Shown: positions 4,594-61,251, numbered from the stretch's first letter. The stretch: 64,000 bases of DNA from Candidatus Bathyarchaeota archaeon (GCA_963815095.1 CAWFFH010000003.1:896001-960000); one strand, 5' to 3'. The notes: generated by a model not told the origin, from the sequence alone. Numbers and translations: made by a program.

Positions 4594-5886
4594 TTGATGG
4601 TTAAGAGAAAGCTTCGCGAACCCTTAGAAGACCGAAAAGGCAGCCTCTTCTTTGACGGTTTCTCAGTTAAAGATTTGGCTGAAAAATATGATACGCCACT
4701 ATACGTGTTAAGCGAGAAACGAATTAGAGACAACTACAACCGTATCCACAATGCCTTAATTAGCACCTACAAACACCTGCGAGTTTACTATGCCGCCAAA
4801 GCCAACAGCAATCTAACTGTACTGAAGATTCTCCAGTCCGAAGGCGCATACTTAGACACCGTTAGCCCTGGCGAAGTTTTCATGGGCTTAAGCAGCGGAT
4901 ACACGCCAGACCGCATCCTGTTCACTGGAACAAGCGTAAGAAACGACGAATTAAAGTTCCTATCCGACGCCAATATCACGGTTAACGTGGATTCACAATC
5001 AGAGCTCGATAGGTTACTAAAGATTGAAGTTCCACAAACAGTTTCCATTCGTGTTAACCCCGAAATCGGCGCTGGACACCACAGTCATTGCATAACAGCT
5101 GGTCCCGAATCCAAGTTTGGGTTATGGGAGGAAGAAGCCATACAAGCTTACGCAATTGCCAAGCAAGCTCGTGTTGAACGCTTTGGCATCCATATGCACA
5201 TTGGTTCCGGCATCCTTGAGATTGAACCTTATGCTTTGGCGGTTGAAAAGCTTCTATCCATAGCTAAGCGTGTGCACGATGAAGTAGGCATAGCATTTGA
5301 GTTTATTGACATTGGTGGCGGATTTGGCGTTCCATACAAGTCCGAAGACAAAGACTTAGACCTTACAGAATTTGCCAACAAAATTGTGACCCCATTTAAG
5401 AACAAAGTTAAGGAATATGGTTTGGGTAAGCCGTTTTTGTGTGTTGAACCAGGACGGTACCTTGTATGCGACGCAAGCATTCTCCTAACAACTGTGAACA
5501 CAGTTAAGACAACGCCTTCCAAAAAATTCGTCGGAGTAGATGCAGGCTTTAACACACTTGTTCGTCCCACAATGTATGGTTCATACCATCCAATTCTGGT
5601 TACCAACAAAGTTGCGCAGGCTGGTAAGGAAACCTATGACATAGTAGGTCCGATCTGTGAGTCAGGTGATGCATTGGCCAAAGACCGCCAATTACCAAAG
5701 GTTGAGGAAGGTGATTTGCTGGCTGTTCTAAATGCTGGCGCTTATGGGTTCAGCATGAGTTCACAATACAACTCACGACCCCGAGCTGCAGAAGTGATGA
5801 TTCGACAAGGCAAGGATGTTTTAGTCCGCAAGCGTGAGGAACTAAGCGATTTGATGGCCAGTCAACGGATGCAGAGTGGGTCTTGA
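4594..5886 (+). CDS. lysA: Diaminopimelate decarboxylase
   Basis: YAAKAN (PLP Lys), HMHIGS, DIGGGFG, EPGRYLV, GPICESGD, YNSRPR. Confidence 0.96.
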   Translation: MMVKRKLREPLEDRKGSLFFDGFSVKDLAEKYDTPLYVLSEKRIRDNYNRIHNALISTYKHLRVYYAAKANSNLTVLKILQSEGAYLDTVSPGEVFMGLSSGYTPDRILFTGTSVRNDELKFLSDANITVNVDSQSELDRLLKIEVPQTVSIRVNPEIGAGHHSHCITAGPESKFGLWEEEAIQAYAIAKQARVERFGIHMHIGSGILEIEPYALAVEKLLSIAKRVHDEVGIAFEFIDIGGGFGVPYKSEDKDLDLTEFANKIVTPFKNKVKEYGLGKPFLCVEPGRYLVCDASILLTTVNTVKTTPSKKFVGVDAGFNTLVRPTMYGSYHPILVTNKVAQAGKETYDIVGPICESGDALAKDRQLPKVEEGDLLAVLNAGAYGFSMSSQYNSRPRAAEVMIRQGKDVLVRKREELSDLMASQRMQSGS

Positions 5887-6717
5887 TGCGTTTTTGGAAG
5901 ATGCATGGTTTAGGCAACGACTATATTGTTATTGATAATAGGGACATGAAAATCAGCGATGATGGGGCAGCCGAATTAGCTAAGACTCTTTGTGAGAGAC
6001 GTTTCTCAGTTGGCGCCGATGGACTTCTTCTTGTATGCACTTCTAAAGTAGCCGATGTGAAGATGAGGATTTTCAACTCTGATGGTAGTGAAGCTGAAAT
6101 GTGCGGAAACGGCATACGCTGTTTCTCCAAATACTGCTACGAAAATGACATTGCAAAGAAAGCTGAGTTTACAGTTGAAACCCTCTCTGGCATAAAGCAT
6201 GTATGGTTAACCCTAAATGGCAAAGAAGTCGCAACCGTGAAAGTTGATATGGGTGCACCCAACTGGCAGCGAGTGTCGCTTCCAATGATAGGTGAAGGTA
6301 CTTGCATTAATGGTGACTTAAGTTGATGGTGAACCCTACAAAGTTACTTGCTTGTCGATGGGGAATCCCCACTGTGTTATTTTCGTGGAAAACATTGATG
6401 AATTTCCAGTTGACTATGTTGGTCCAATAATAGAAAATGATAGAGCTTTCCCCAAAAGAACTAACGTGGGTTTCGTTCAAGTTCTAACCAAAAATGAACT
6501 TAAGGTTCGAGTTTGGGAACGCGGTTGCGGAGAAACCCTTGCGTGCGGTACTGGCACCTGCGCAGCAGCGGCGGCTGCTAACAAGCTCGGAAAAGTTGGC
6601 ACCAAAGTCACAGTTCATATTCTTGGCGGAGACCTGCAAGTGGAAGTCAGCAAAACCCTCTTCCTAACCGGAGCCGCAGAGAAAGTTTACGAAGGAACAT
6701 TATTCAAGGAGCCATAA
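5883..6717 (+). CDS. dapF: Diaminopimelate epimerase, split by a +1 frameshift at about 6321
   Basis: KMHGLGNDY and EAEMCGNGIRC in ORF 5883-6326; MGNPHCV and ERGCGETLACGTG in the +1 frame. Confidence 0.92.
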
Positions 6718-48636: not shown

Positions 48637-50404
48637 TCAAAGGAATCTCCTCGGATCAGTGTCAATGTCAACGATTGTAGGTTTTGTGGATTTGAGGGCT
48701 TTGTCAACGGCTGCTTCAAGCTGGTTTGGTTCTGTAACTTTGATGCCTAAACCGCCTGCATTCTCAGCAAAAGTGGCGAAGCTGAAGTCATGGAGGTCTG
48801 TTTGCCAACCCTCATAGCCCTCAACTTTCTGTTCCTGCATAATCATTCCCAATCGTTTGTTATTCATAACAAACACTTTAACAGGTAAATTGTATTTGAG
48901 TGCTGTTAAGAAATCACCTAAAACCATTGTTAAGCCGCCATCGCCGGTCAAACACACAATTTGCCTTTCAGGGTAAGCCAAGGCTGCTGCTAAAGCTCCA
49001 GGCAAACCAAAACCCATCGTTGCCAATTGTCCGCTCATGACCATTTTCTGTGATTTTTTCATCCTAAAGTTGCGGCCAAACCACCAGCAGTTTTCTCCAA
49101 CATCTAAAGAAATCACTGCATTGTCAGCGATTTTTTCGTTTAGGACTTTGATGATGTATTGTGGTCTAATCGGTTTCAGGGTTGGGTCAGCTTCTTTTTC
49201 GAGTTGAGTTAGCCATTCCTGTTTTAGTTTGGCTACTTCAGCTAAATAATGTCTCTTTTTCTTTCTGCTGAACCTTATCGGTCAACTTGGGAATCAACAC
49301 AGCGCTGTTTCCTAACAATCCCACCTCGACAGAGTACCTGCGAGCAATCATCAACGGATTAATATCAATCTGCACTGTGCGTTTTTTGGGAATAAGCGAC
49401 AAATCCGAAAACGAAGATCCAATGGCTATTAGCAAATCTGCTTTTTCCATGAGTTGCCCAGCGGCAGTTGAACCAACCCCACCATGGCATCCAACATACA
49501 ACGGCTCGTTTTCATCAACGATGCCTTTTGCGCGGAAAGTCGAAATAATTGGCGCACCAATCTTCGAAGCCAACTTTAAGAGCTTGGTTCCTTGTCCCCT
49601 GGCGCCGAAACCCACCAAAATTATAGGTCTATTGGCTGAATCAATGACTTTTGCCGCCTTTTCAACAACCCATTCCTCCTGTCCATAAGCAAGATTTGGC
49701 ATTCTGCCCTCAAACGGCAAAATCTGGGTTTCATATGGCAATTTTTGAACGTCGTTGGGTAAGCCGATGTGAGCAACACCCTGATTCAAAAGCGCATGCT
49801 TAATTGCCAACGTTGCCAGCGTTGTGGTTTGGTCCTCAGTCATCAACGTCTTGTTATAGACGCTTAACGGTTCAAAAAAAGCTTGTTGATCAATTTCTTG
49901 TATTGCACCTTGACCCATATGTTTTCGTGGAACCATACCGGTCAACGCCAAAACTGGCGAATGATCCAGCTGAGCATCGTACAATCCAGTCACCAAGTTA
50001 GTTGCCCCCGGACCAGAAATTCCAAGGCAAGCTGCTATATGCCCAGTTAATTTCCCATAAGCCGATGCCATAAAGGCGGCTGTTTCCTCATGCCTGACTT
50101 GCACGTATTTCACTTTGCCTTTGCTTTTACGTATTGCATCCACAATACCTAATGTTGAGGTGCCAGGAATACCGAAAACGTATTGTACGCCCCACTCAGC
50201 AATCTGGTCAATAAGAACATCGGAAACCGTGTGTCCACCTTTTTTCGTATTCTCTTCTGCTTGCGACTCTGCTAACAATATAAACGCTGATTTTGGTGCC
50301 CCGCAAATAGGACAAACCCATTCTTCAGGCAAATCGCTAAACTTTACCTTCTCTTTCGCATCATCATAAACCCAATTGCAAACAGTACATCGGTATTTCG
50401 CCAT
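48637..50404 (-). CDS. Rubredoxin fused to a pyruvate oxidase/acetolactate synthase-family TPP enzyme, split by a +1 frameshift at about 49245
   Basis: CTVC...W.CPICG rubredoxin; FGIPG, VRHEE.AAF.A, GPGATN; [11 protein letters not shown] and GDGG...NN in the shifted frame; 49117-49240 is open in that frame. Confidence 0.88.
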
Positions 50405-50520
50405 TTCAAACCCTCAAAAACCTATAGAAACTAAGTGATTCCGTCCTTATCAGTTTATTGGAGCATTCAAAAATTGAACATTTTTATAAACTGCTTAACC
50501 AACTAATTACTTGTAAAGAG

Positions 50521-51462
50521 ATGCTAATTATGGAGAATTGGGATGTCATAATCATTGGCGCTGGCTCCGCTGGTTTAGCTGCGGGAATTTACACTGTTCG
50601 AAGTGGTTTGAAAACTTTGATTTTAGATGAGAAACTTCCCGGCGGAACAATCTCAGATGCCTCAATGGTGGTTAATTATCCTGGGTTTGCAGAGATTAGT
50701 GGTGGGGAATTGGCAGAAAAAATGACTCTGCATTGCAAAAAGGTCGGCGCAATCATTCACGATTTAGAGCCAGTCACTGAATTAGACCTTGTGGGCGAAA
50801 AGAAAATTGTGAAAACCTCAAACGCAACCTATGAGGCTAAAGCAGTAATATTTTCTGTTGGTTCACATTACAAGGGAATCGATGTTAAAGGTGAAAAAGA
50901 GTTTCGCGGTAGAGGCGTAAGCTACTGCGGTGTTTGCGATGGACCATTTTTTAAGGGCAAAAAAGTGCTTGTGGTCGGCGGTGGAAATTCAGCTTGCATT
51001 ACCACTCTCTATCTTTCCGGTCTCGCAGCACAGGTCACGGTTATTCATAGGCGGGAAGCGTTTAGGGCGGAAGAATCTTTGGTGTCGGACATATCCTCAA
51101 AAGGTAATGTTAATATCATGTGGAATACTGAAATTCAAGAAATCAAGGGCGACAAACAAGTAAAAGCCGTCACCCTAATCGATAACATAACAAAGAAAAC
51201 AAGTGAACTTTCAGTTGACGCGGTTTTTGTTCAAGTTGGCGAAGCACCCAACAGCCAAATAGCCAAAGCCAGCGGTGTAGAAACCGACGAGCATGGATAC
51301 ATCAAAATTGACATCCACCAACAAACAAATCTGCCTGGAGTTTACGCGGCAGGCGACGTAACTAACCATCCCATTAAACAGGTGGGTACTGCTGTGGGTC
51401 AAGGTATCACTGCAGCTCTTGAAGCTTATAGTTACATTCGACGACCCTATTACAAAAAATAG
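50521..51462 (+). CDS. trxB: Thioredoxin reductase
   Basis: IIGAG.AG, GVSYCGVCDG, VGGGNSA, HRR, AAGDV. Confidence 0.93.
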   Translation: MLIMENWDVIIIGAGSAGLAAGIYTVRSGLKTLILDEKLPGGTISDASMVVNYPGFAEISGGELAEKMTLHCKKVGAIIHDLEPVTELDLVGEKKIVKTSNATYEAKAVIFSVGSHYKGIDVKGEKEFRGRGVSYCGVCDGPFFKGKKVLVVGGGNSACITTLYLSGLAAQVTVIHRREAFRAEESLVSDISSKGNVNIMWNTEIQEIKGDKQVKAVTLIDNITKKTSELSVDAVFVQVGEAPNSQIAKASGVETDEHGYIKIDIHQQTNLPGVYAAGDVTNHPIKQVGTAVGQGITAALEAYSYIRRPYYKK

Positions 51463-51565: not shown

Positions 51566-52789
51566 ATGAGTGAAAAATGTCTCGCTGTAGTCGAAATCAA
51601 TCAAGACCTATGCAGTCGATGTTATGTCTGCAAATCAATCTGTCCCTATGAAGCTATAAAGGCGGATTCAACGGGCAAAGTTGAAATTAACAGTCAAGAT
51701 TGCCAAGTTTGCGGCATCTGCTATAGTGCTTGTCCCTCTGCAGCCATAAAAATGCAATATTACACTTACGATAACCTATCAGAATTCCTTGCGAAGGCGC
51801 AAATTAAAGCCAAAAACGTTAACACCCTTGTCTTGATGTGTCGAGGAAACTCGCCTTCCACAGGGGAAGTCCAAGACATCCTAAAAGAGCAAGGATTGAA
51901 AGTTGACAAATACATGGCTTTGCGTCTGCCATGTGCGGGTCGTGTTCCAACAGACTTTGTTTTTGAAGCCCTAAACTCAGGCGTTAAAAACATTGTTTCC
52001 ATCCAATGTGAAGACCCATTCTGCCGCTACAAAGAAGGCACAAAAATTAACACACGCAGACTCGTCTTAGCACGCAATGTTCTAAAACAATTAGGCTTTG
52101 ATGAGAACGCTGTAAGGGTTGTAAAGTTCTCCCGTAAAGCAGTCTATGACGTACAGGCATGTGTGGGTTGCGACAAATGCATCTTCATCTGCCCATACGG
52201 CGCGCTTGAGTTTGAGTCGTTTGCAACTCCAAAAGTAATTGAAGAAAAATGCACAGGATGCGGTGCATGCCAACTGGTTTGTCCACACCATGCAATACAA
52301 GTGAAAGGTTTCGAATTCGAAGATGTAGTTGACCGCTATGGCAAATCACTTGCACTTCTGAAAGACAAAAACAAAGGACCCGCCGTGCTCGCGTTCGTTT
52401 GTCAATGGTCCGAGTTCTCTGCATTAGATAATCCCAACAAAGCATTCGAAGGCAAAAACGTCCTGGCCCTTGAAGTTCCCTGCTTCAAATCCCTTGACCC
52501 CGTCCATATCATCAACGCATTAAACTGCGGCTTCGATGGTGTAATGGGCGTGGTTTGTTCAGCTAAAGACTGCAAGCTTCAAGAAGGAAGAGGCGCTGCA
52601 GAACGCAACGTGGCTGCACTGAAAGTTGCACTTAAAAAATTGGGTTTGCTCGACCGATTCGAACTCTACGAGGAGTCACCCAGATGCGCTGATGAATTCG
52701 AGGCAAAACTCGATGAATTCTACAAGAAAATTTGTACTTTACCAAAACGGGAAGTAGCTTTGGAGGCGACTGAAAAACGTACAAAATAG
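51566..52789 (+). CDS. Tandem (2[4Fe-4S] ferredoxin - MvhD/FlpD-like [2Fe-2S]) x2 fusion protein
   Basis: Four CxxCxxCxxxCP motifs in two pairs; MvhD-like MC..LPCAGRV..QC....C and VC.WS..VPC...DP..GFDGV...C....C. Confidence 0.85.
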   Translation: MSEKCLAVVEINQDLCSRCYVCKSICPYEAIKADSTGKVEINSQDCQVCGICYSACPSAAIKMQYYTYDNLSEFLAKAQIKAKNVNTLVLMCRGNSPSTGEVQDILKEQGLKVDKYMALRLPCAGRVPTDFVFEALNSGVKNIVSIQCEDPFCRYKEGTKINTRRLVLARNVLKQLGFDENAVRVVKFSRKAVYDVQACVGCDKCIFICPYGALEFESFATPKVIEEKCTGCGACQLVCPHHAIQVKGFEFEDVVDRYGKSLALLKDKNKGPAVLAFVCQWSEFSALDNPNKAFEGKNVLALEVPCFKSLDPVHIINALNCGFDGVMGVVCSAKDCKLQEGRGAAERNVAALKVALKKLGLLDRFELYEESPRCADEFEAKLDEFYKKICTLPKREVALEATEKRTK

Positions 52790-53622
52790 TATCGAAAAAA
52801 GAATTAGTTCCCAAGATCAAACTCTTAGAAGTTGATGCTCCAGACGTTGCGGCTCAATCACACGCTGGCCAATTCCTAATTGTAATCCATGGCAAAACAG
52901 GCGAACGAATACCCTTAACTATCTGCGGCTACGACACAACGAAAGGAACGGTTTCTTTTGCATTCCATGAAGTCGGCAAAACCACCAAAGATTTGGGCTT
53001 ATTAAACCAAGGCGAATGCATCGACAACGTTACGGGACCACTTGGCAACCCCTCTGAAGTTAAAAACTTTGGCAAGGTTCTCTGTGTGGGCGGAAGCATA
53101 ATGATTGCGCCTTTGCTATTGCAGGCTAAAGCCATGAAAGAAGCAGGCAACAAAGTAACTACAGTTCTAGGTGCCCGAACAAAAGAATTCATCATGATGG
53201 AAAATGAAGCTAAAGCCCTTAGCGAAAAAGTCTACGTTGCAACCGACGATGGGTCAAAAGGTTACAAAGGTTTAGATTTCCTAAAAGAATTGCTAAAGAC
53301 GGAAAAGTTTGACCGCTGTGTAGTCATGGGTCCAGTTATCCTGATGAAAGACGTTAGCGAAATTACTAAACCTTACAACATCCCCACAATAGTCACCTTA
53401 ACTCCCATAATGATTGATGGAATGGGTATGTGTGGAGTATGCCGAGTTACAGTCGACGGCAAAATGAAGTTTGGCTGTGTAGACGGACCAGAATTTGACG
53501 GTCACAAAACAGACTTTAACGAATTAATCATTCGTCAACGAACTATGCTTCCTGAAGAAAGGTTAAGTTCAGTATTATCGGAAATGAGTGGAGGTTGCAA
53601 GTGTGGCAGAAACAAAGCCTAA
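52777..53622 (+). CDS. sudB: Sulfide dehydrogenase/Nfn small subunit (SudB/NfnA); apparent ACG start at 52777
   Basis: xYKIVSKKEL, GQF, GERIPLTI, VGKTT, GPLG.PS, TDDGS, MIDG.GMCG.CRV, CVDGPEFDGH; frame open from 52774. Confidence 0.92.
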   Translation, partial: TYKIVSKKELVPKIKLLEVDAPDVAAQSHAGQFLIVIHGKTGERIPLTICGYDTTKGTVSFAFHEVGKTTKDLGLLNQGECIDNVTGPLGNPSEVKNFGKVLCVGGSIMIAPLLLQAKAMKEAGNKVTTVLGARTKEFIMMENEAKALSEKVYVATDDGSKGYKGLDFLKELLKTEKFDRCVVMGPVILMKDVSEITKPYNIPTIVTLTPIMIDGMGMCGVCRVTVDGKMKFGCVDGPEFDGHKTDFNELIIRQRTMLPEERLSSVLSEMSGGCKCGRNKA

Positions 53623-55012
53623 ACCAAAGTTAAACAAGAAAGCAGTTGAAATGGCTAAGCAAGAGCCAAAAGTTCGCGCTAAAAATTTCAGTGAAGTTGC
53701 TTTAGGTTACACTGAAGCAGAAGCCCAAGAAGAAGCAAGTAGATGCCTGTGCTGTCCAAATCCTCAATGCAGAACAGGTTGCCCCGTGGAAGTTCCAATT
53801 CCAACATTTGTCAAATGCATCAAAGAAAAGAAGTACGCTGAAGGCATCGCAGCAATCAAAACCAAAAACGCCCTGCCAGCAGTTTGCGGACGCGTCTGCC
53901 CACAAGAAGTACAATGTCAAGCCAAATGTGTCATCGGCAAGATGGGCGACCCAATCAGCATCGGACGTTTAGAACGGTTCCTTGCCGACTGGGAAAGAGA
54001 TAATGGCTCCCAACTTCCGCCAAAAGCTCCAGACACTGGTAAAAAAGTAGCAGTTATCGGTGCGGGTCCAGCAGGCTTAACCGTTGCGGCAGACCTCGTT
54101 AAACTCGGCCACAAAATCACCATGTTCGAAGCGTTGCATGTAGGCGGTGGAGTGCTCTCCTATGGTATCCCGGAATTCCGCTTACCCAAAACCATCGTGC
54201 AGGGCGAAGTTAATTATGTCCAGAGCCTTGGTGTTGATTTACGCCTCGGTAACCTTGTCGGCAGAATTCACACTATCCCAGAACTTATGAAGAATGGTTA
54301 CGACGCGGTATTCATTGGAAGCGGCGCGGGCTTACCCCAATTCACTGGTTGTCCAGGAGAAAACCTCGGCGGAATTTATTCAGCAAACGAATTCCTCATA
54401 CGCGTTAACCTCATGAAAGCCTACCTGTTCCCAGAGTATGACACTCCAATACGTCTCGGCAAAAAAGTTGTCGTTATCGGCGGCGGAAACGTAGCCATGG
54501 ATTGCGCAAGAAGTAGCATGCGACTTGGCTCCGAAGTCTGTTTACTCTACAGACGCTCACGCGACGAATTACCTGCAAGACATGAAGAAATCGAAAACGC
54601 TGAAGAAGAAGGCTTAGTCTGCAAATTCCTCGCAGCACCCCTAGAATTTTACGGTGACGAGAAAGGCTGGATTAAAGCCATGAAGGTCATTGCAATGGAA
54701 CTAACTGAACCAGATGCAAAGGGCAGAAGAGGCGTTAAAGAGGTTCCAGGCAGTGAATTCACAATGGATGTCGACACAGTCATAATTGCAATAGGACAGA
54801 CACCAAACCCAATCATCCAAAGCACCACAGGCGGATTAGTAAGTGACCCTAAACGAGGAACTATCACTGTTAACGAAGTTGGCAAAACAAGCTTAGACGG
54901 AGTTTACGCAGGCGGAGACGTCGCCACAGGCGCAGCAACAGTTATCAGCGCTATGGGTGCAGGCAAACGCGCAGCCAGGGCAATGCACGAATACTTAACA
55001 AACAAAGAATAA
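53603..55012 (+). CDS. sudA: Sulfide dehydrogenase/Nfn large subunit (SudA/NfnB, GltD-like)
   Basis: EASRCL.C...C..GCP, CGRVCPQE.QC, GAGPAG, YGIPEFRLPK, GGGNVAMD, AGGD..TGAATV. Confidence 0.93.
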   Translation: MAETKPKPKLNKKAVEMAKQEPKVRAKNFSEVALGYTEAEAQEEASRCLCCPNPQCRTGCPVEVPIPTFVKCIKEKKYAEGIAAIKTKNALPAVCGRVCPQEVQCQAKCVIGKMGDPISIGRLERFLADWERDNGSQLPPKAPDTGKKVAVIGAGPAGLTVAADLVKLGHKITMFEALHVGGGVLSYGIPEFRLPKTIVQGEVNYVQSLGVDLRLGNLVGRIHTIPELMKNGYDAVFIGSGAGLPQFTGCPGENLGGIYSANEFLIRVNLMKAYLFPEYDTPIRLGKKVVVIGGGNVAMDCARSSMRLGSEVCLLYRRSRDELPARHEEIENAEEEGLVCKFLAAPLEFYGDEKGWIKAMKVIAMELTEPDAKGRRGVKEVPGSEFTMDVDTVIIAIGQTPNPIIQSTTGGLVSDPKRGTITVNEVGKTSLDGVYAGGDVATGAATVISAMGAGKRAARAMHEYLTNKE

Positions 55013-57117: not shown

Positions 57118-58662
57118 TTAACGGTCGAGCATAAACGGTTTTTTACGTGTTGCCTGTTCTGGGATTCGGTCTAAAATCATTTTTTCCTCTGGTTTTTTGC
57201 TCAGCACTATCGGTGACAGTTTTCCAGCAAGTTCCAGCGCAGATGCCAATTTGCTGCTTCTCTCAGCGTAAATTTCAAGCAAGACTCCGTTTTTGTGTAC
57301 TGTATCGCCTAGTTTTGCATGCAAAACTACTCCTGCGCCCTTCTCCTTGGGTGCTCCGGCTTCACGGGCAATTCGTACAATGTCGTCGGTGCTTAGCCAT
57401 AGAACTTTACCTGCATTTTCTGAGCGTACAGTAGCAGAGTTGGGTCCTACAGGCAAATCTTCAGGTTTTACCGCCGGGTTTCCGCCTTGAGCAGCGATGA
57501 TTTCCCGCATCTTCTGCATTGCTTTTCCTGAATCAAGCATATCCTCAGCCATTGCGCGTCCATTTTCAACTCCGACCATTTCAAAAAGCATACTAGCAAG
57601 GCCTACTGCTTTTTCGCGCAGGTCAGGTGGGCCTCCACCCATAAGAGTCATTAATGCTTCTCTTGCCTCCAAGGCAGGTCCAATTCCACAGCCCAAAGGC
57701 TGCTCCCCAAAAGTCAAGGCACATTGAATGTTTAATCCTAAACGTTTGCCCATATCCACGAAATCCGACGCTAACGTGTAGGCTTCAGTTCGAGTTTTGA
57801 TTTTAGCTCCCATACCCGTTGGAATATCGATGACTACTTGGGTTGCTCCAATGGCTTTTTTCTTGCTTAGAATCGAGGGTAAAAGCATCGGGTCAATTCC
57901 CAAGGGGTACTCGACTTGGATAAATAGGTCGTCGGCTGGTGCAAGTTCCAAAGATCCGCCCCAAACTAGGCATCCGTTGGTTTTTGCTACGACTTCTTTG
58001 ATTTCTTTTATTGAGAGATTAACTGGGCAGAGAGTTTCTACTCTATCAGCTGTCCCCGCAGGTGACGTGATGGCGCGTGAAGAGGTTTTGGGGATAGTGA
58101 ATCCTGCAGCTGCTACAATGGGCACAACGAGCATACTGGTTTTGTCGCCTGGAATGCCGCCGACGCTGTGTTTGTCGAGGATGGGTGATTTTCCAAAATC
58201 GATTGTTTTGCCAGTGAAAATCATCGCTCTCGATAAGGCTTCTGTCTCGCCTGTGCTTAATCCATTAATGCTCAATGCTGTAAGGAAAGCGGCGATTTCA
58301 ACTGTGCTCAAGTGCCTTTCTACAACATCTTTCACAATAGCCAGAATGTCCCCCTCACGTAAACGTTCTCCACGCAACTTTGCTCTGATGTTAAAAAGTG
58401 ATTCAGGAAGCGGAGCCAACTCCACATTAACAGTTTCACCCTCCTTAACCCCAAGTGCAGCAACGGTTTCCCGGTAGAGTCCGATGCGGTTTGTGGGAAA
58501 ATAATCAGCAATGTTGGCGATTGCTATCATCATTTGGTTTTTGCAAGTAATTTTTATTCTATCTGAACTGTGCACACCAAGCATGTTGGCGCTTTCTTCA
58601 CTTAGTATGGCGATTCTGCTGCCGCCAGTTGTTATCATTAACGATTCAACGCTTAATTCCAT
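57118..58662 (-). CDS. AMP phosphorylase
   Basis: DKHSVGGIPGDK, PKTSSRAITSPAGTAD, WGG...APADD, IGPALEA; N-terminal extra domain. Confidence 0.95.
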   Translation of the reverse strand: MELSVESLMITTGGSRIAILSEESANMLGVHSSDRIKITCKNQMMIAIANIADYFPTNRIGLYRETVAALGVKEGETVNVELAPLPESLFNIRAKLRGERLREGDILAIVKDVVERHLSTVEIAAFLTALSINGLSTGETEALSRAMIFTGKTIDFGKSPILDKHSVGGIPGDKTSMLVVPIVAAAGFTIPKTSSRAITSPAGTADRVETLCPVNLSIKEIKEVVAKTNGCLVWGGSLELAPADDLFIQVEYPLGIDPMLLPSILSKKKAIGATQVVIDIPTGMGAKIKTRTEAYTLASDFVDMGKRLGLNIQCALTFGEQPLGCGIGPALEAREALMTLMGGGPPDLREKAVGLASMLFEMVGVENGRAMAEDMLDSGKAMQKMREIIAAQGGNPAVKPEDLPVGPNSATVRSENAGKVLWLSTDDIVRIAREAGAPKEKGAGVVLHAKLGDTVHKNGVLLEIYAERSSKLASALELAGKLSPIVLSKKPEEKMILDRIPEQATRKKPFMLDR

Positions 58663-58747
58663 GTCAAGCACGTCAATACCAATTGTTTGAGAAATAGTTA
58701 AAGATTTTAAGGCAAAGTCAATGAATCTAGCCATCGAGGATTGCGCT

Positions 58748-59971
58748 TTGAAGTATATTGACTTTGTAGATTTATCTTACAAGCCTAAGGAAACCGATTT
58801 AATCTGCACTTTTTACGTAGAGCCTGAAGGCATAACATTAAAAGAAGCTGCAGGCGGAGTTGCTGCTGAAAGTTCTGTGGGTACATGGACTGAATTGACA
58901 ACTGAGCAGCCTTACGTTAAGCGATTAGCAGCACATGTCTATAGCGTTGAAGACTGCGTTATCAAAATCGCTTATCCTATTGAACTTTTTGAGTCAGCTA
59001 ACATGCCCAACATCTTAAGTAGCGTGGCTGGGAACGTTTTTGGGCTTAAGGCACTGAAAAACCTGCGTTTACTCGATATTGAATTTCCCAAACAACTATT
59101 AAACAGCTTCAAAGGACCCGCCTTTGGCATAGCTGGAATTCGCAAACTCCTTAAAATCCCAAAACGTCCCCTCGTCGGTACCATAATCAAACCTAAACTT
59201 GGGTTAGAAACTAAAGACCACGCCAAAGTAGCTTATGAGGCTTGGTTTGGAGGTTGCGATGTCGTTAAAGACGATGAGAACTTGAGTAGCCAAAAATTCA
59301 ACCCCTTTGATGAGCGCCTTGTGCAGACTCTTGAGAGCCGAGACAAAGCACAAGAGGAGACGAATGAACGCAAGGTCTACATGATTAACATCACTGCCGA
59401 AACCCAAACCATGCTTAAACGCGCCCAAACCGTCGTTGACCACGGCGGCGAATACGTCATGGTGGACATCTTGACCTGCGGTTGGTCCGCACTACAAACA
59501 TTGCGCGACCAAGACTTCAAACTTGTTATCCATGCTCACCGTGCTGGGCACGCGGCTTTCACCAAAAACCCCCTGCATGGTATTGCGATGAAACCCATAG
59601 CTACAGTTGCAAGGATAATTGGCGTTGACCAACTTCATGTTGGCACAGTCGTCGGCAAGATGTCTGAAACTAAAACAGAAGTTATCCAAAACATCGACGC
59701 GTGCAAATCCGAAATGGGTTATCTCAAACCTGTTTTGCCTGTTGCAAGTGGCGGAGTACATCCAAGGCTAATCCCCGCACTCATTAAGACTTTCGGCAAC
59801 GATTTCGTTATTCAAGCCGGCGGCGGCATCCACGGACACCCACATGGTACAATCGCAGGTGCCAAAGCCATGCGTCAAGCTGTCGACGCAACCCTGTATG
59901 GGAAAACTCTGGAAGAATACGCCAAAAACCACCAAGAACTAGCGGAAGCCCTGAAACAATGGAAAACCTAA
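58748..59971 (+). CDS. rbcL: Form III ribulose-1,5-bisphosphate carboxylase
   Basis: AAESSVGTWT, GNVFG, KPKLG, DVVKDDE, HAHRA.H, GTVVGKM, SGG.H, QAGGG.HGHP. Confidence 0.95.
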   Translation: MKYIDFVDLSYKPKETDLICTFYVEPEGITLKEAAGGVAAESSVGTWTELTTEQPYVKRLAAHVYSVEDCVIKIAYPIELFESANMPNILSSVAGNVFGLKALKNLRLLDIEFPKQLLNSFKGPAFGIAGIRKLLKIPKRPLVGTIIKPKLGLETKDHAKVAYEAWFGGCDVVKDDENLSSQKFNPFDERLVQTLESRDKAQEETNERKVYMINITAETQTMLKRAQTVVDHGGEYVMVDILTCGWSALQTLRDQDFKLVIHAHRAGHAAFTKNPLHGIAMKPIATVARIIGVDQLHVGTVVGKMSETKTEVIQNIDACKSEMGYLKPVLPVASGGVHPRLIPALIKTFGNDFVIQAGGGIHGHPHGTIAGAKAMRQAVDATLYGKTLEEYAKNHQELAEALKQWKT

Positions 59972-60209
59972 GTCAGTAAATAGGTTGCCCTACCTTTCAT
60001 TACCTCCACTATTTTTTTGGTAACTCCAAATTTGGCACAACTATAACATTGGAAAATTTTATTTTGGGATTCTAAATGTTAATTGTAGAGTTGGAGTCAC
60101 TTCAATAATTCAAAATTATTCTCATTGATGAAAAGTCAAGAACTGATCCAAGGTAAAAGTCATTTTTGAAATATCGCATAAGATATAAAATTATTTAGAA
60201 AAACGAATT

Positions 60210-61127
60210 TTAGAAAATCCAGGAGTATTTTCGGCGCATAACCTCGACAATTGTTTGGGATGTTATTATGCCTTCTTCGCAGATTAAGCCGTGTATGTAA
60301 CGGTTTGGGGTAACGTCAAAGGCTGGGTTGAGTACAGTGAGTTTTGATGGTGCTTCGTTCCAGACTTCGGCTGGGTTGCGTTGCTCAATTTTTTCGCATT
60401 CGCCTTGAAGTGTTTCGGGGTCGAATTTGAGTAGTTCCGAAACCACGTAAAAAGGCACTCTGGCTTCATGGGCTAAAACCGCGATACCGCTTGAGCCAAT
60501 CTTGTTAACTACGTTGCCCTCGGAGGTTATTGCGTCAGCTCCCACAATTACCACATCAACATCCCTCATGAATGTCCGCGCAGCCGAATCTACAACAAAT
60601 GTGGTCTCAATTCCCAATTCCACGAGTTCTTTGGCAGTTATTCTTCCCTGAAACGCTGGACGCGTCTCGGTACAGATGACTTTAAAGATTTTGCCATCCG
60701 CTTTGGCTTTAGCAAGTAGTCGGGTTACGGTTGAAGAGTGGCAATGAGTAAAAACCACTGAGCCGTCGCGGATACGTTTGGCACCAATTTCAGCTATCTG
60801 CTCTTTTGAATCCTCCAAATCTTTGAGGAACTGGTCCGCTGAAGAAACCACCAGTTTGCTCAACTCACCCACTTTTTCTGTGTTAGCGGCTTGGGTTTGG
60901 GTGATTAACCAGCGGATAGCGTTTCTCATCAATGGCTCGGTTTCTCTGGATGCAGCGAAGATGGTTTGAGCTTCTTTAAGCTCAGCAAAAAATTGGGTTT
61001 TGTTTTTCGTTTTTGTTTGCTGTGCTTGGGTTTGGATAGCTTTGACTGCGGCTATGGCGACGTTTCTTGCGCCTTGAACTTGCAGCTTCTTGATTTTTTC
61101 TGCTGTCAAATGGATTATTTCTGACAT
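60210..61127 (-). CDS. Ribose-1,5-bisphosphate isomerase
   Basis: VQGA..VA, R.TEP.MRN, THCHS (catalytic Cys), ETRP..QG, GAD, NKIG, NPAFDVTP; next to AMP phosphorylase and Rubisco. Confidence 0.92.
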   Translation of the reverse strand: MSEIIHLTAEKIKKLQVQGARNVAIAAVKAIQTQAQQTKTKNKTQFFAELKEAQTIFAASRETEPLMRNAIRWLITQTQAANTEKVGELSKLVVSSADQFLKDLEDSKEQIAEIGAKRIRDGSVVFTHCHSSTVTRLLAKAKADGKIFKVICTETRPAFQGRITAKELVELGIETTFVVDSAARTFMRDVDVVIVGADAITSEGNVVNKIGSSGIAVLAHEARVPFYVVSELLKFDPETLQGECEKIEQRNPAEVWNEAPSKLTVLNPAFDVTPNRYIHGLICEEGIITSQTIVEVMRRKYSWIF

Positions 61128-61251
61128 AATCTTCAACCCAGGCTTTGTTTTTAATTATTGTGGAGAAGCATATAAGCAAATTCATAACAACTGTATGGTG
61201 AACGTTAGGCTGCATGAGGAAGATAGCATCGGGCATTTTAGGCAGTATAGT

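Follow-up and report, generated by a model that had tools for sequence, protein, structure and literature searches.

Textbooks present Nfn as the smallest electron-bifurcating enzyme, and only soluble carriers are generally assigned to it; NfnAB is usually a two-subunit bifurcating transhydrogenase that works with free ferredoxin. MvhD (FlpD) normally wires HdrA to a hydrogenase or to formate dehydrogenase (Fdh). In this study, we analyzed a window of 64,000 nucleotides (nt), which is the whole stretch G000:C3:896001-960000 of a Bathyarchaeia genome that is 98% complete and whose close relatives are named Bathyarchaeota metagenome-assembled genomes. The window carries a gene for an iron-sulfur protein made of two ferredoxin-MvhD modules, hereafter the tandem protein, followed by sudB and sudA, which encode an Nfn-type small and large subunit (Table 1). 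An earlier note on this DNA had proposed that the tandem protein is a dedicated third subunit of Nfn. This proposal is supported computationally by conserved gene adjacency, by the covariation of a SudB loop and by a predicted interface with SudB, and we consider it likely that the tandem protein is a subunit of SudB(A). The locus encodes a conserved and apparently undescribed variant of Nfn, which would work like Nfn joined to the MvhD wiring of Mvh-Hdr.

NfnAB/NfnI of T. maritima (4YLF/4YRY) and SudAB of P. furiosus (5JCA) are homologous to the SudA and SudB of this locus. SudA scores 548 bits against TmNfnB (4ylf_B), and SudB scores 242-256 bits against the solved Nfn small subunits, with the 256 bits going to PfNfnI-S (5jca_S). 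The motifs for flavin adenine dinucleotide (FAD), [2Fe-2S] and two [4Fe-4S] clusters are kept, and so is the overlapping sudB-sudA order. Unlike those enzymes, the present one has a predicted third subunit with six clusters, the nicotinamide adenine dinucleotide (NAD(H)) loop of its SudB reads GGSIMIAP, and in the predicted complex protein occupies the cleft. With a degenerate loop and an occupied cleft, SudB(A) probably does not use NAD(H) as a substrate here. P. furiosus NfnII (Xfn, 5VJ7) is also an Nfn paralogue with a deviant NADH-binding domain in the small subunit, but its loop GAYTGIVE keeps the fifth-position Gly, and it scores 173 bits against this SudB vs. 256 for NfnI. To our knowledge, no extra subunit of NfnII is known. 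A report on PfNfnII linked its altered NADH-binding domain to a different high-potential partner (PMC6405883).

Both halves of the tandem protein share the fold and the Cys ligands of MvhD in MvhAGD-HdrABC and FdhAB-MvhD-HdrABC (5ODC, 7BKB, 8RVU), and relatives of its gene lie beside mvhGA. Unlike in MvhD, the domain is duplicated here, a two-cluster ferredoxin domain is attached to each of the copies, CQWS stands in place of CNWC as the first motif, and the predicted partner is SudB instead of HdrA. Each module is nearest to residues 572-772 of HdrA2 of Methanosarcina acetivorans (HdrA2B2C2), but the thioredoxin-reductase-like FAD domain and the N-terminal HdrA domain of HdrA2 are lacking. 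Type III HdrA with an inserted GltD/NfnB-like domain is seen, in genomes only, in anaerobic methanotrophic archaea of group 1 (ANME-1) and in Bathyarchaeota, in the latter clustered with mvhADG (PMC9012536, PMC12054007). In that protein, too, an NAD(P)H module of the NfnB/GltD type is combined with iron-sulfur wiring of the Hdr/Mvh type; there, however, the module is fused into HdrA and the HdrA flavin is kept, whereas here SudA and SudB are separate, the unit has no HdrA, and the double-MvhD link is predicted to lie on SudB. MetFV-HdrABC-MvhD of Moorella thermoacetica (PMC5861303) is another case of MvhD-type wiring, in which a flavoenzyme module is linked to methylene-tetrahydrofolate reductase, and may be compared with a tandem-metV-metF sister subfamily found here. 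Unlike it, the tandem-metV-metF clusters contain no HdrA, and the genome under study gave no match to MTHFR (methylenetetrahydrofolate reductase). A full-text literature search found no double ferredoxin-MvhD subunit on NfnAB, and term searches in the main text of two Bathy-6 genome papers (PMC11697101, PMC7886697) gave no mention of it.

Table 1. Position and basis of the features of the window, counted from its first nucleotide.
Feature	Position	Strand	Basis
Tandem (2x[4Fe-4S] ferredoxin + MvhD)x2 iron-sulfur adaptor, 407 amino acids (aa)	51566..52789	+	Pfam, invariant Cys, AF2, Foldseek
sudB start region: GGAGG Shine-Dalgarno (SD) sequence 52762-52766, 10-nt spacer, ACG 52777-52779	52762..52779	+	Sequence; inside the 3' end of the tandem gene
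sudB/nfnA-type small subunit (FAD, [2Fe-2S]), 281 aa, degenerate NAD(H) loop	52777..53622	+	NF004862, 5jca_S
sudA/nfnB-type large subunit (two [4Fe-4S], FAD, NADPH site), 474 aa, GTG start	53588..55012	+	TIGR01316, 4ylf_B
Thioredoxin-reductase (TrxR)-type flavoprotein (CGVC active site, GGGNSA...HRRxxFRA motifs)	50458..51462	+	TIGR01292, 343.0 bits (cut-off 343.45)
Thiamine pyrophosphate (TPP) enzyme, two open reading frames (ORFs)	48637-49116 and 49238-50404	-	
Diaminopimelate (DAP) epimerase, two adjacent ORFs	5883-6323 and 6352-6714	+	One DAP_epimerase domain each
538-aa ORF	57118-58734	opposite to RuBisCO	
Form III-type RuBisCO large subunit	58721-59971		
IF-2B-family gene	60213-61136		

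The tandem protein had been described as two repeats of two CxxCxxCxxxCP motifs followed by a four-Cys MvhD-like domain, and the ORF, the Pfam matches and 24 invariant Cys bear out this architecture. The domains were placed at about 8-70 (Fd1), 88-185 (D1), 190-250 (Fd2) and 273-395 (D2). Pfam matched FlpD/MvhD (PF02662) with 125.5 bits in two stretches (cut-off 22.3) and Fer4 in four; in its own genome the matches score 79.4 and 52.2 bits. The top NCBIfam match covers only the C-terminal part of HdrA2 (572-772), which is about 200 residues of ferredoxin domain and fused MvhD, and its 177 bits are far under the cut-off of 1100. No full-length HdrA or HdrA2 match (NF040770, NF041778) and no flavin-domain match in Pfam was found for the protein. 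Because only that C-terminal part is matched, and so weakly, the tandem protein is by its profile matches two copies of the HdrA2 tail and not HdrA.

The Cys are invariant in two alignments, one of 17 and one of 44 relatives, with identities as low as 29%. Of these Cys, 8+8 make up four CxxCxxCxxxC(P) motifs, and each MvhD-like domain has another four (C92/C123/C148/C153 in D1, C279/C306/C331/C336 in D2), a pattern that fits up to four [4Fe-4S] and two [2Fe-2S] clusters. The four Cys of D2 align with Cys of the solved MvhD chains 7bkb_F and 5odc_D, which we take to be cluster ligands there; C123, C148 and C153 of D1 do the same, while C92 is paired with C279 only in the family alignment. The AlphaFold2 (AF2) model, built on the 44-sequence alignment, had a predicted local distance difference test score (pLDDT) of 88.6 and a predicted template modelling score (pTM) of 0.85. 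Its top Foldseek match was MvhD 5odc_D, with a template modelling (TM) score of 0.81 on the target; in the PDB no solved chain covered the whole protein (query TM <=0.30), and only MvhD and ferredoxin parts matched. Among 22 longer relatives, Pfam showed ferredoxin-MvhD modules fused to HdrA-like, NuoG-like, molybdopterin and other domains, and no fusion to SudB or SudA. An apparent TrxR-tandem fusion in G390 (open frame of 720 aa) was rejected as an artefact of a run of N. In L117 and L151 the tandem gene and sudB share a frame, but a stop codon divides them and there is no fusion of 666-672 aa. Two distant tandem proteins (P0129, P0134) have a C-terminal extension of about 120 aa, which gave no Pfam match at 1e-8 and looks helix-turn-helix-like by eye only.

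SudB matched NF004862 with 351 bits (cut-off 220), and it also matched NF006220 and NF040835, reflecting homology to hydrogenase gamma subunits. Against 5jca_S and 4ylf_A it keeps GERIPLT of the FAD site and the DGxGMCGxCRV...C pattern of the Asp/Cys3 [2Fe-2S] site, and by predicted fold and cofactor motifs it is a PyrK-like Nfn small subunit. SudA matched TIGR01316 with 580 bits (cut-off 472), Fer4_20 with 136 and Pyr_redox_2 with 123 bits, and the genome has no second SudA homologue. Its domain content is that of an Nfn large subunit, GltD-like, with a putative two-[4Fe-4S] N-terminal domain followed by FAD and NADPH domains.

The overlaps between the three genes, which had been pointed out before, were confirmed by the stop and start coordinates, with one correction, which concerns the start of sudB. 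The open frame of sudB begins at 52774. The stop of the tandem gene is at 52787-52789, three codons into sudB, which gives a 13-nt overlap; at the other end, the GTG of sudA lies upstream of the sudB stop (53620-53622). In the frame of sudB, a TGA stands at 52771, and no ATG, GTG or TTG comes after it before codon 73. The codon aligned with the initiator is ACG in 59 of 105 loci, ATG in 33, GTG in 6, TTG in 6 and ATT in 1, and a GGAGG-like SD sequence stands before it at the same spacing. This suggests that sudB initiates at the near-cognate ACG. Such a start is preferred over a -1 slip where the tandem gene ends (A-AAA-TAG), which would give a tandem-SudB fusion protein, because ATG, GTG or TTG fills this codon in 45/105 loci with unchanged SD spacing. 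A weak ACG behind a strong SD sequence, together with the short overlap, would couple sudB translation to ribosomes completing the tandem gene. Since sudB has no canonical start codon, gene callers will cut it to 209 aa, at the first in-frame start (TTG 52993), or drop it.

The expected synteny across Bathyarchaeia was found, and many families keep sudB(A) beside the gene. At E <=0.001 the databases hold 1546 relatives of the tandem protein, and about 17 full-length clusters at 50% identity were found among 1.8 billion representatives. In a sample of 401 genomes across the phylum, the full-length protein occurred in 29 genomes, all of class Bathyarchaeia, and outside this class only single ferredoxin-MvhD tails of HdrA-like proteins of about 800 aa matched. 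In a sample of 401 Bathyarchaeia genomes, it was present in 116, in 39 of 131 genera and in 82 of the 103 genomes of family f1. The gene directly after it is sudB in 79/80 close loci, with sudA following as well in 78/80, and the one exception ends at a contig edge. In 34 wider loci of other genera and families, sudB takes this place in 25 and metV-metF in the other 9; in 32 metagenome loci found with the distant representative P0125 (39-65% identity), it does so in all.

It might be supposed that these genes are merely neighbours under common regulation whose products form no stable complex; the tandem protein would then serve Mvh/Hdr (or TrxR) alone, and SudBA would be an ordinary Nfn-like enzyme. 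Close relatives do keep their local synteny in general, including TPP-enzyme and NERD genes, and in some f1 genera an HdrA2::MvhD gene adjoins the cluster. However, the tandem-sudB adjacency lasts to 39-50% identity, where all other neighbours have changed; the genes overlap and sudB has its weak ACG start; the SudB loop covaries with the adjacency; and the complex prediction described below passed with controls at 0.00. We regard mere neighbourhood as highly improbable.

A sister subfamily (35-37% identity) shows the order tandem-metV-metF in L118, L145-L148, L152, L158, L159 and L162, and mvhGA adjoins 6 of these 9 loci. This arrangement suggests a hydrogenase-linked methylene-pterin reductase free of HdrA. 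Because the clusters of relatives vary in containing sudB, metVF, mvhGA or hdrCB, the tandem ferredoxin-MvhD family appears to behave as a modular adaptor, of which the SudB-linked protein is one subfamily.

The atypical NAD(H) loop GGSIMIAP (G105-GSIMIAP-112, numbered from the ACG codon) was read correctly in the earlier note: it differs from the GGGVG[VI]A of solved Nfn small subunits, which is GGGVGVAE in PfNfnI-S and GGGVGIAT in TmNfnA. SudB thus lacks by its sequence the GGGxGxA loop that marks NAD(H) binding in the Nfn small subunit, and for this reason the enzyme was not filed as a standard NfnAB. The idea that the loop change goes together with the tandem subunit was confirmed in every SudB encoded directly after a tandem gene (132/132). 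The fifth loop position is Gly in 0/132 of them; it is Met in 113, Trp in 9, Phe in 7 and Leu in 3. Where SudB is not in this position, Gly is kept. In L152, with the order sudB-sudA-tandem-metV-metF, the loop is a canonical GGGVGIAA; a second SudB copy in L179, not after the tandem gene, has CGGVGIAA; and 5/5 genomes of the same genus without the tandem gene have CGGLG[TA]A. The latter genomes carry a different SudBA (SudB 48%, SudA about 65% identity). The loss of the loop Gly is completely associated with the position directly after the tandem gene. On the tandem side, T221-P222 is invariant in SudB-linked proteins and absent from MetV-linked ones, and SudB proteins of the Trp type are paired with tandem loops that have Trp at the position of F216. 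The ratio of identity between the SudB-linked and MetV-linked groups to that within the former was 0.64-0.67 for the C-terminal and 0.74-0.84 for the N-terminal module, which gives a weak hint as to the half that is specific for the partner.

A complex of SudB (281 aa), residues 1-150 of SudA and the tandem protein was predicted with ESMFold2, with the cofactors omitted and with 25-row alignments of SudB-linked relatives. The interaction prediction scores from aligned errors (ipSAE) were 0.67, 0.67 and 0.62, while the best of three controls was 0.00. The ipSAE mark is reached by 116/157 solved complexes and 2/215 mismatched pairs, rates that are rough for the present case, in which three chains were folded with alignments of our own. 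At least 61% of contacts recur between the runs, and the partner pLDDT was at least 76. The interface that had been anticipated was thus obtained between the tandem protein and SudB, at an ipSAE of 0.67 with clean controls. It joins the second ferredoxin and second MvhD domains (Fd2 and D2) to SudB through residues 196-208, the loop 216-221 (FESFAT), 237-241 and the helices 312-321 and 344-355 on the tandem side, and G106-S107 of the glycine loop, 132-137, 155-158, 165-166, 185-193 (the GPV stretch) and the C-terminal tail 251-276 on the SudB side. These SudB residues are presumably the elements of the dinucleotide cleft in the fold of the ferredoxin-NADP+ reductase (FNR) type. The model supports binding, and we hold it reasonably probable that the tandem protein docks at the NAD cleft of SudB.

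GltD/NfnB-type modules usually pass electrons to iron-sulfur partners through their N-terminal cluster pair. This habit, for which HdrA with an inserted GltD/NfnB domain (PMC9012536, PMC12054007) and ferredoxin-GltD fusions such as the PRK12771-type matches are examples, would be in line with a tethered ferredoxin, in which a ferredoxin-like domain of the tandem protein stands at the distal [4Fe-4S] of SudA in place of free ferredoxin, and the SudB loop has changed for an unrelated reason such as a switch of nucleotide preference. The prediction showed no confident contact with SudA 1-150 vs. the score of 0.67 for the SudB interface; the loop covariation follows adjacency to the tandem gene; and the TP loop that is specific to the SudB-linked subfamily sits in Fd2 at the SudB interface. 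All three argue against a tethered ferredoxin, which we consider improbable.

We lean slightly towards the reading that a SudBA/NfnAB-type flavoenzyme has gained the tandem protein as its own third subunit and that a protein wire to Mvh/Hdr has taken the place of its NAD branch. The 407-aa protein would be a six-cluster electron cable composed of two modules of the HdrA2-tail type. Its C-terminal module (Fd2-D2) would lie on the NAD-binding domain of SudB, and its FESFATP loop (216-222) would enter the former NAD(H) cleft, where the second loop glycine is replaced by Met (by Phe, Trp or Leu in relatives). SudA would retain its NADPH site and the bifurcating FAD, and its two [4Fe-4S] would lead to ferredoxin. 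The high-potential branch of Nfn, from b-FAD through [2Fe-2S] to a-FAD, would continue through the cable and would no longer end in NAD because the loop of the cable fills the former cleft. The other electron would pass from the [2Fe-2S] and FAD of SudB to Fd2 and then travel the length of the cable until it reaches the free N-terminal module, which may dock MvhG (of MvhAG) and/or HdrC (of HdrBC). In net terms, electrons of NADPH would be split between ferredoxin and H+/H2 or a disulfide; the reverse would be confurcation, and the direction would be set by the H2 pressure.

The suggestion that the subunit links Nfn to HdrA-type or other modules stood as far as the modules are concerned, in that clusters of relatives hold Mvh [NiFe]-hydrogenase, HdrBC and MetFV; the predicted contact falls on the NAD(H) cleft of SudB and not on SudA. 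The genes mvhG-mvhA-hycI lie directly upstream of tandem-sudB in L117 (family f12) and in L120, L151, L154 and L155 (f13), and in L168, L172, L174 and L186 the gene pair mvhG-mvhA comes directly after sudB or sudA, so that mvhGA adjoins nine loci of SudB-type relatives in total. Directly after sudA, hdrC-hdrB was found in L119, L143, L144, L160 and L161 and metV-metF in L195, and a convergent hdrA2-hdrC-hdrB is present in L153, L170 and L183. The genome under study has an hdrC-hdrB-mvhG-mvhA operon without mvhD or hdrA (G000:C3:1408384-1413832; L137 6385-11832), in which MvhAG is encoded at C3:1409824-1412258. Its MvhA is of the Mvh type (380 bits against 5odc_F) and shares 63% identity with the MvhA whose gene adjoins the tandem gene in L117. 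Behind this operon come a flavodoxin-like, a YgbA_NO-family and a hycI protease gene. Among 40 sampled genomes of the same genus, 27 have both the tandem gene and MvhA, one has the tandem gene only, one has MvhA only and 11 have neither. In our estimate, the odds that the cable is linked to either MvhAG or HdrBC in this organism are about even.

The same clusters would also fit a non-bifurcating H2:NADP+ oxidoreductase, in which electrons run from MvhAG through the cable to the FAD/[2Fe-2S] of SudB, then to the FAD of SudA and NADP+, and ferredoxin is not obligatory; the beta/gamma subunits of group 3b sulfhydrogenase offer an analogy. In its favor, mvhGA is clustered with tandem-sudB in the nine loci, L172 has no sudA between sudB and mvhG and in f13 sudA is several kb off, the NF006220 and NF040835 matches relate SudB to the gamma subunits of hydrogenases, and the predicted docking on SudB fits equally. 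On the other hand, SudA with both [4Fe-4S] motifs follows sudB in most loci (78/80) and is a close NfnB homologue at 548 bits, and the predicted electron entry on the a-FAD side corresponds to the high-potential branch of Nfn. Moreover, the genome already has a group-3b-like NAD(P)-linked [NiFe]-hydrogenase (G000:C3:1030156-1034120; L138 5156-9120). We judge such an oxidoreductase to be unlikely. The beta and gamma subunits of this group-3b-like hydrogenase are fused (639 aa; Fer4_22, NAD_binding_1 and DHODB_Fe-S_bind), and its small and large subunits follow.

Several points weigh against the proposed wiring of Nfn to Mvh/Hdr. The hydrogenase and hdrBC genes of the genome are about 460 kb from the tandem gene, and its only HdrA, an HdrA2::MvhD fusion with polyferredoxin on contig C5 (L004 9672-13072), could alone serve MvhAG-HdrBC. 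Several f1 genera have MvhA without the tandem gene; for this reason any dependence is one-way, and the hydrogenase does not rely on the tandem gene. In f13, sudA is several kb away from tandem-sudB, which means that a strict three-subunit unit is not kept everywhere. The loci are kin, so the 0/132 Gly count reflects few independent changes of the loop, and the Met in it, as a sequence character, does not prove loss of NAD(H) binding. The part of SudA beyond residue 150 lies outside the complex model, and because SudA was cut in this way the missing SudA contacts are weak evidence. The evidence is computational throughout: architecture, conservation, loop covariation and the predicted interface were computed here, and from these we infer cofactor content, binding, activity, partner docking, the direction of electron flow and bifurcation. 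Bifurcation needs crossed flavin potentials, which are unreadable from a sequence, and true bifurcation is a tentative view that we rate somewhat below an even chance.

In its fullest form, the proposal would be a new bifurcating class, MvhAG-(Fd-MvhD)2-SudBA, in which the former NAD pocket of SudB is wired to a [NiFe]-hydrogenase (in some lineages to HdrBC/MetFV), the double MvhD is a general plug that does without HdrA, and sudB is produced 1:1 through ACG coupling. This class would catalyze 2 NADPH + Fd(ox) + 2 H+ <-> 2 NADP+ + Fd(red) + H2, or its disulfide or methylene-pterin equivalent. Taken as a whole, this is doubtful. If it were true, the double-MvhD adaptor would let Bathyarchaeia pair donor and acceptor modules without HdrA, and the ACG-initiated, coupled sudB would enforce 1:1 production of the flavoprotein. 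It would further mean that the bifurcating core of Nfn can be re-plugged into hydrogenases, heterodisulfide reductases and methylene-pterin reductases, and it would give one answer as to the high-potential partner of Nfn paralogues with a deviant NADH domain, such as NfnII. It would also bear on the role of Mvh/Hdr genes in non-methanogenic Bathyarchaeia. Bathyarchaeia are abundant archaea of sediment, peat and soil, and as the tandem protein was found in 116/401 of their genomes, it is of relevance to their NADPH/ferredoxin/H2 balance.

The statement that the window has no hdrA, hydrogenase or fdh gene holds for the Pfam scan of 64 of its 73 ORFs of at least 90 aa, the nine unscanned ORFs being of at most 228 aa, and the other FlpD matches and all NiFe-hydrogenase matches of the genome fall outside the window. 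The TrxR-type gene ends 103 bp upstream of the tandem gene, and its HRRxxFRA is an NADPH-type motif. A TrxR-type match lies upstream on the same strand in 72/80 close loci; families f1 and f4 and some of the metagenome loci have the gene at this place, and f2, f5, f12 and f13 do not. A divergent HdrA2::MvhD gene is sometimes found beyond it. The TrxR-type gene is a possible member of the system.

Next to the TrxR-type gene, a TPP enzyme of the acetolactate-synthase/pyruvate-oxidase type carries a rubredoxin domain at its N-terminus and is divided between two ORFs about 120 nt apart, one with the N and M domains and the other with the C domain. Since the same split pair was found in most of the 80 related loci, the split is probably not an assembly error. 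The DAP epimerase is likewise encoded by two ORFs, within a lysine-biosynthesis cluster (dapA, dapB, asd, lysA). The 538-aa ORF gave no Pfam match at 1e-12; it may resemble nucleoside/AMP (adenosine monophosphate) phosphorylases. The RuBisCO gene stands between this ORF and the IF-2B-family gene, and the layout of the three (57118-61136) is that of the archaeal AMP-salvage pathway.

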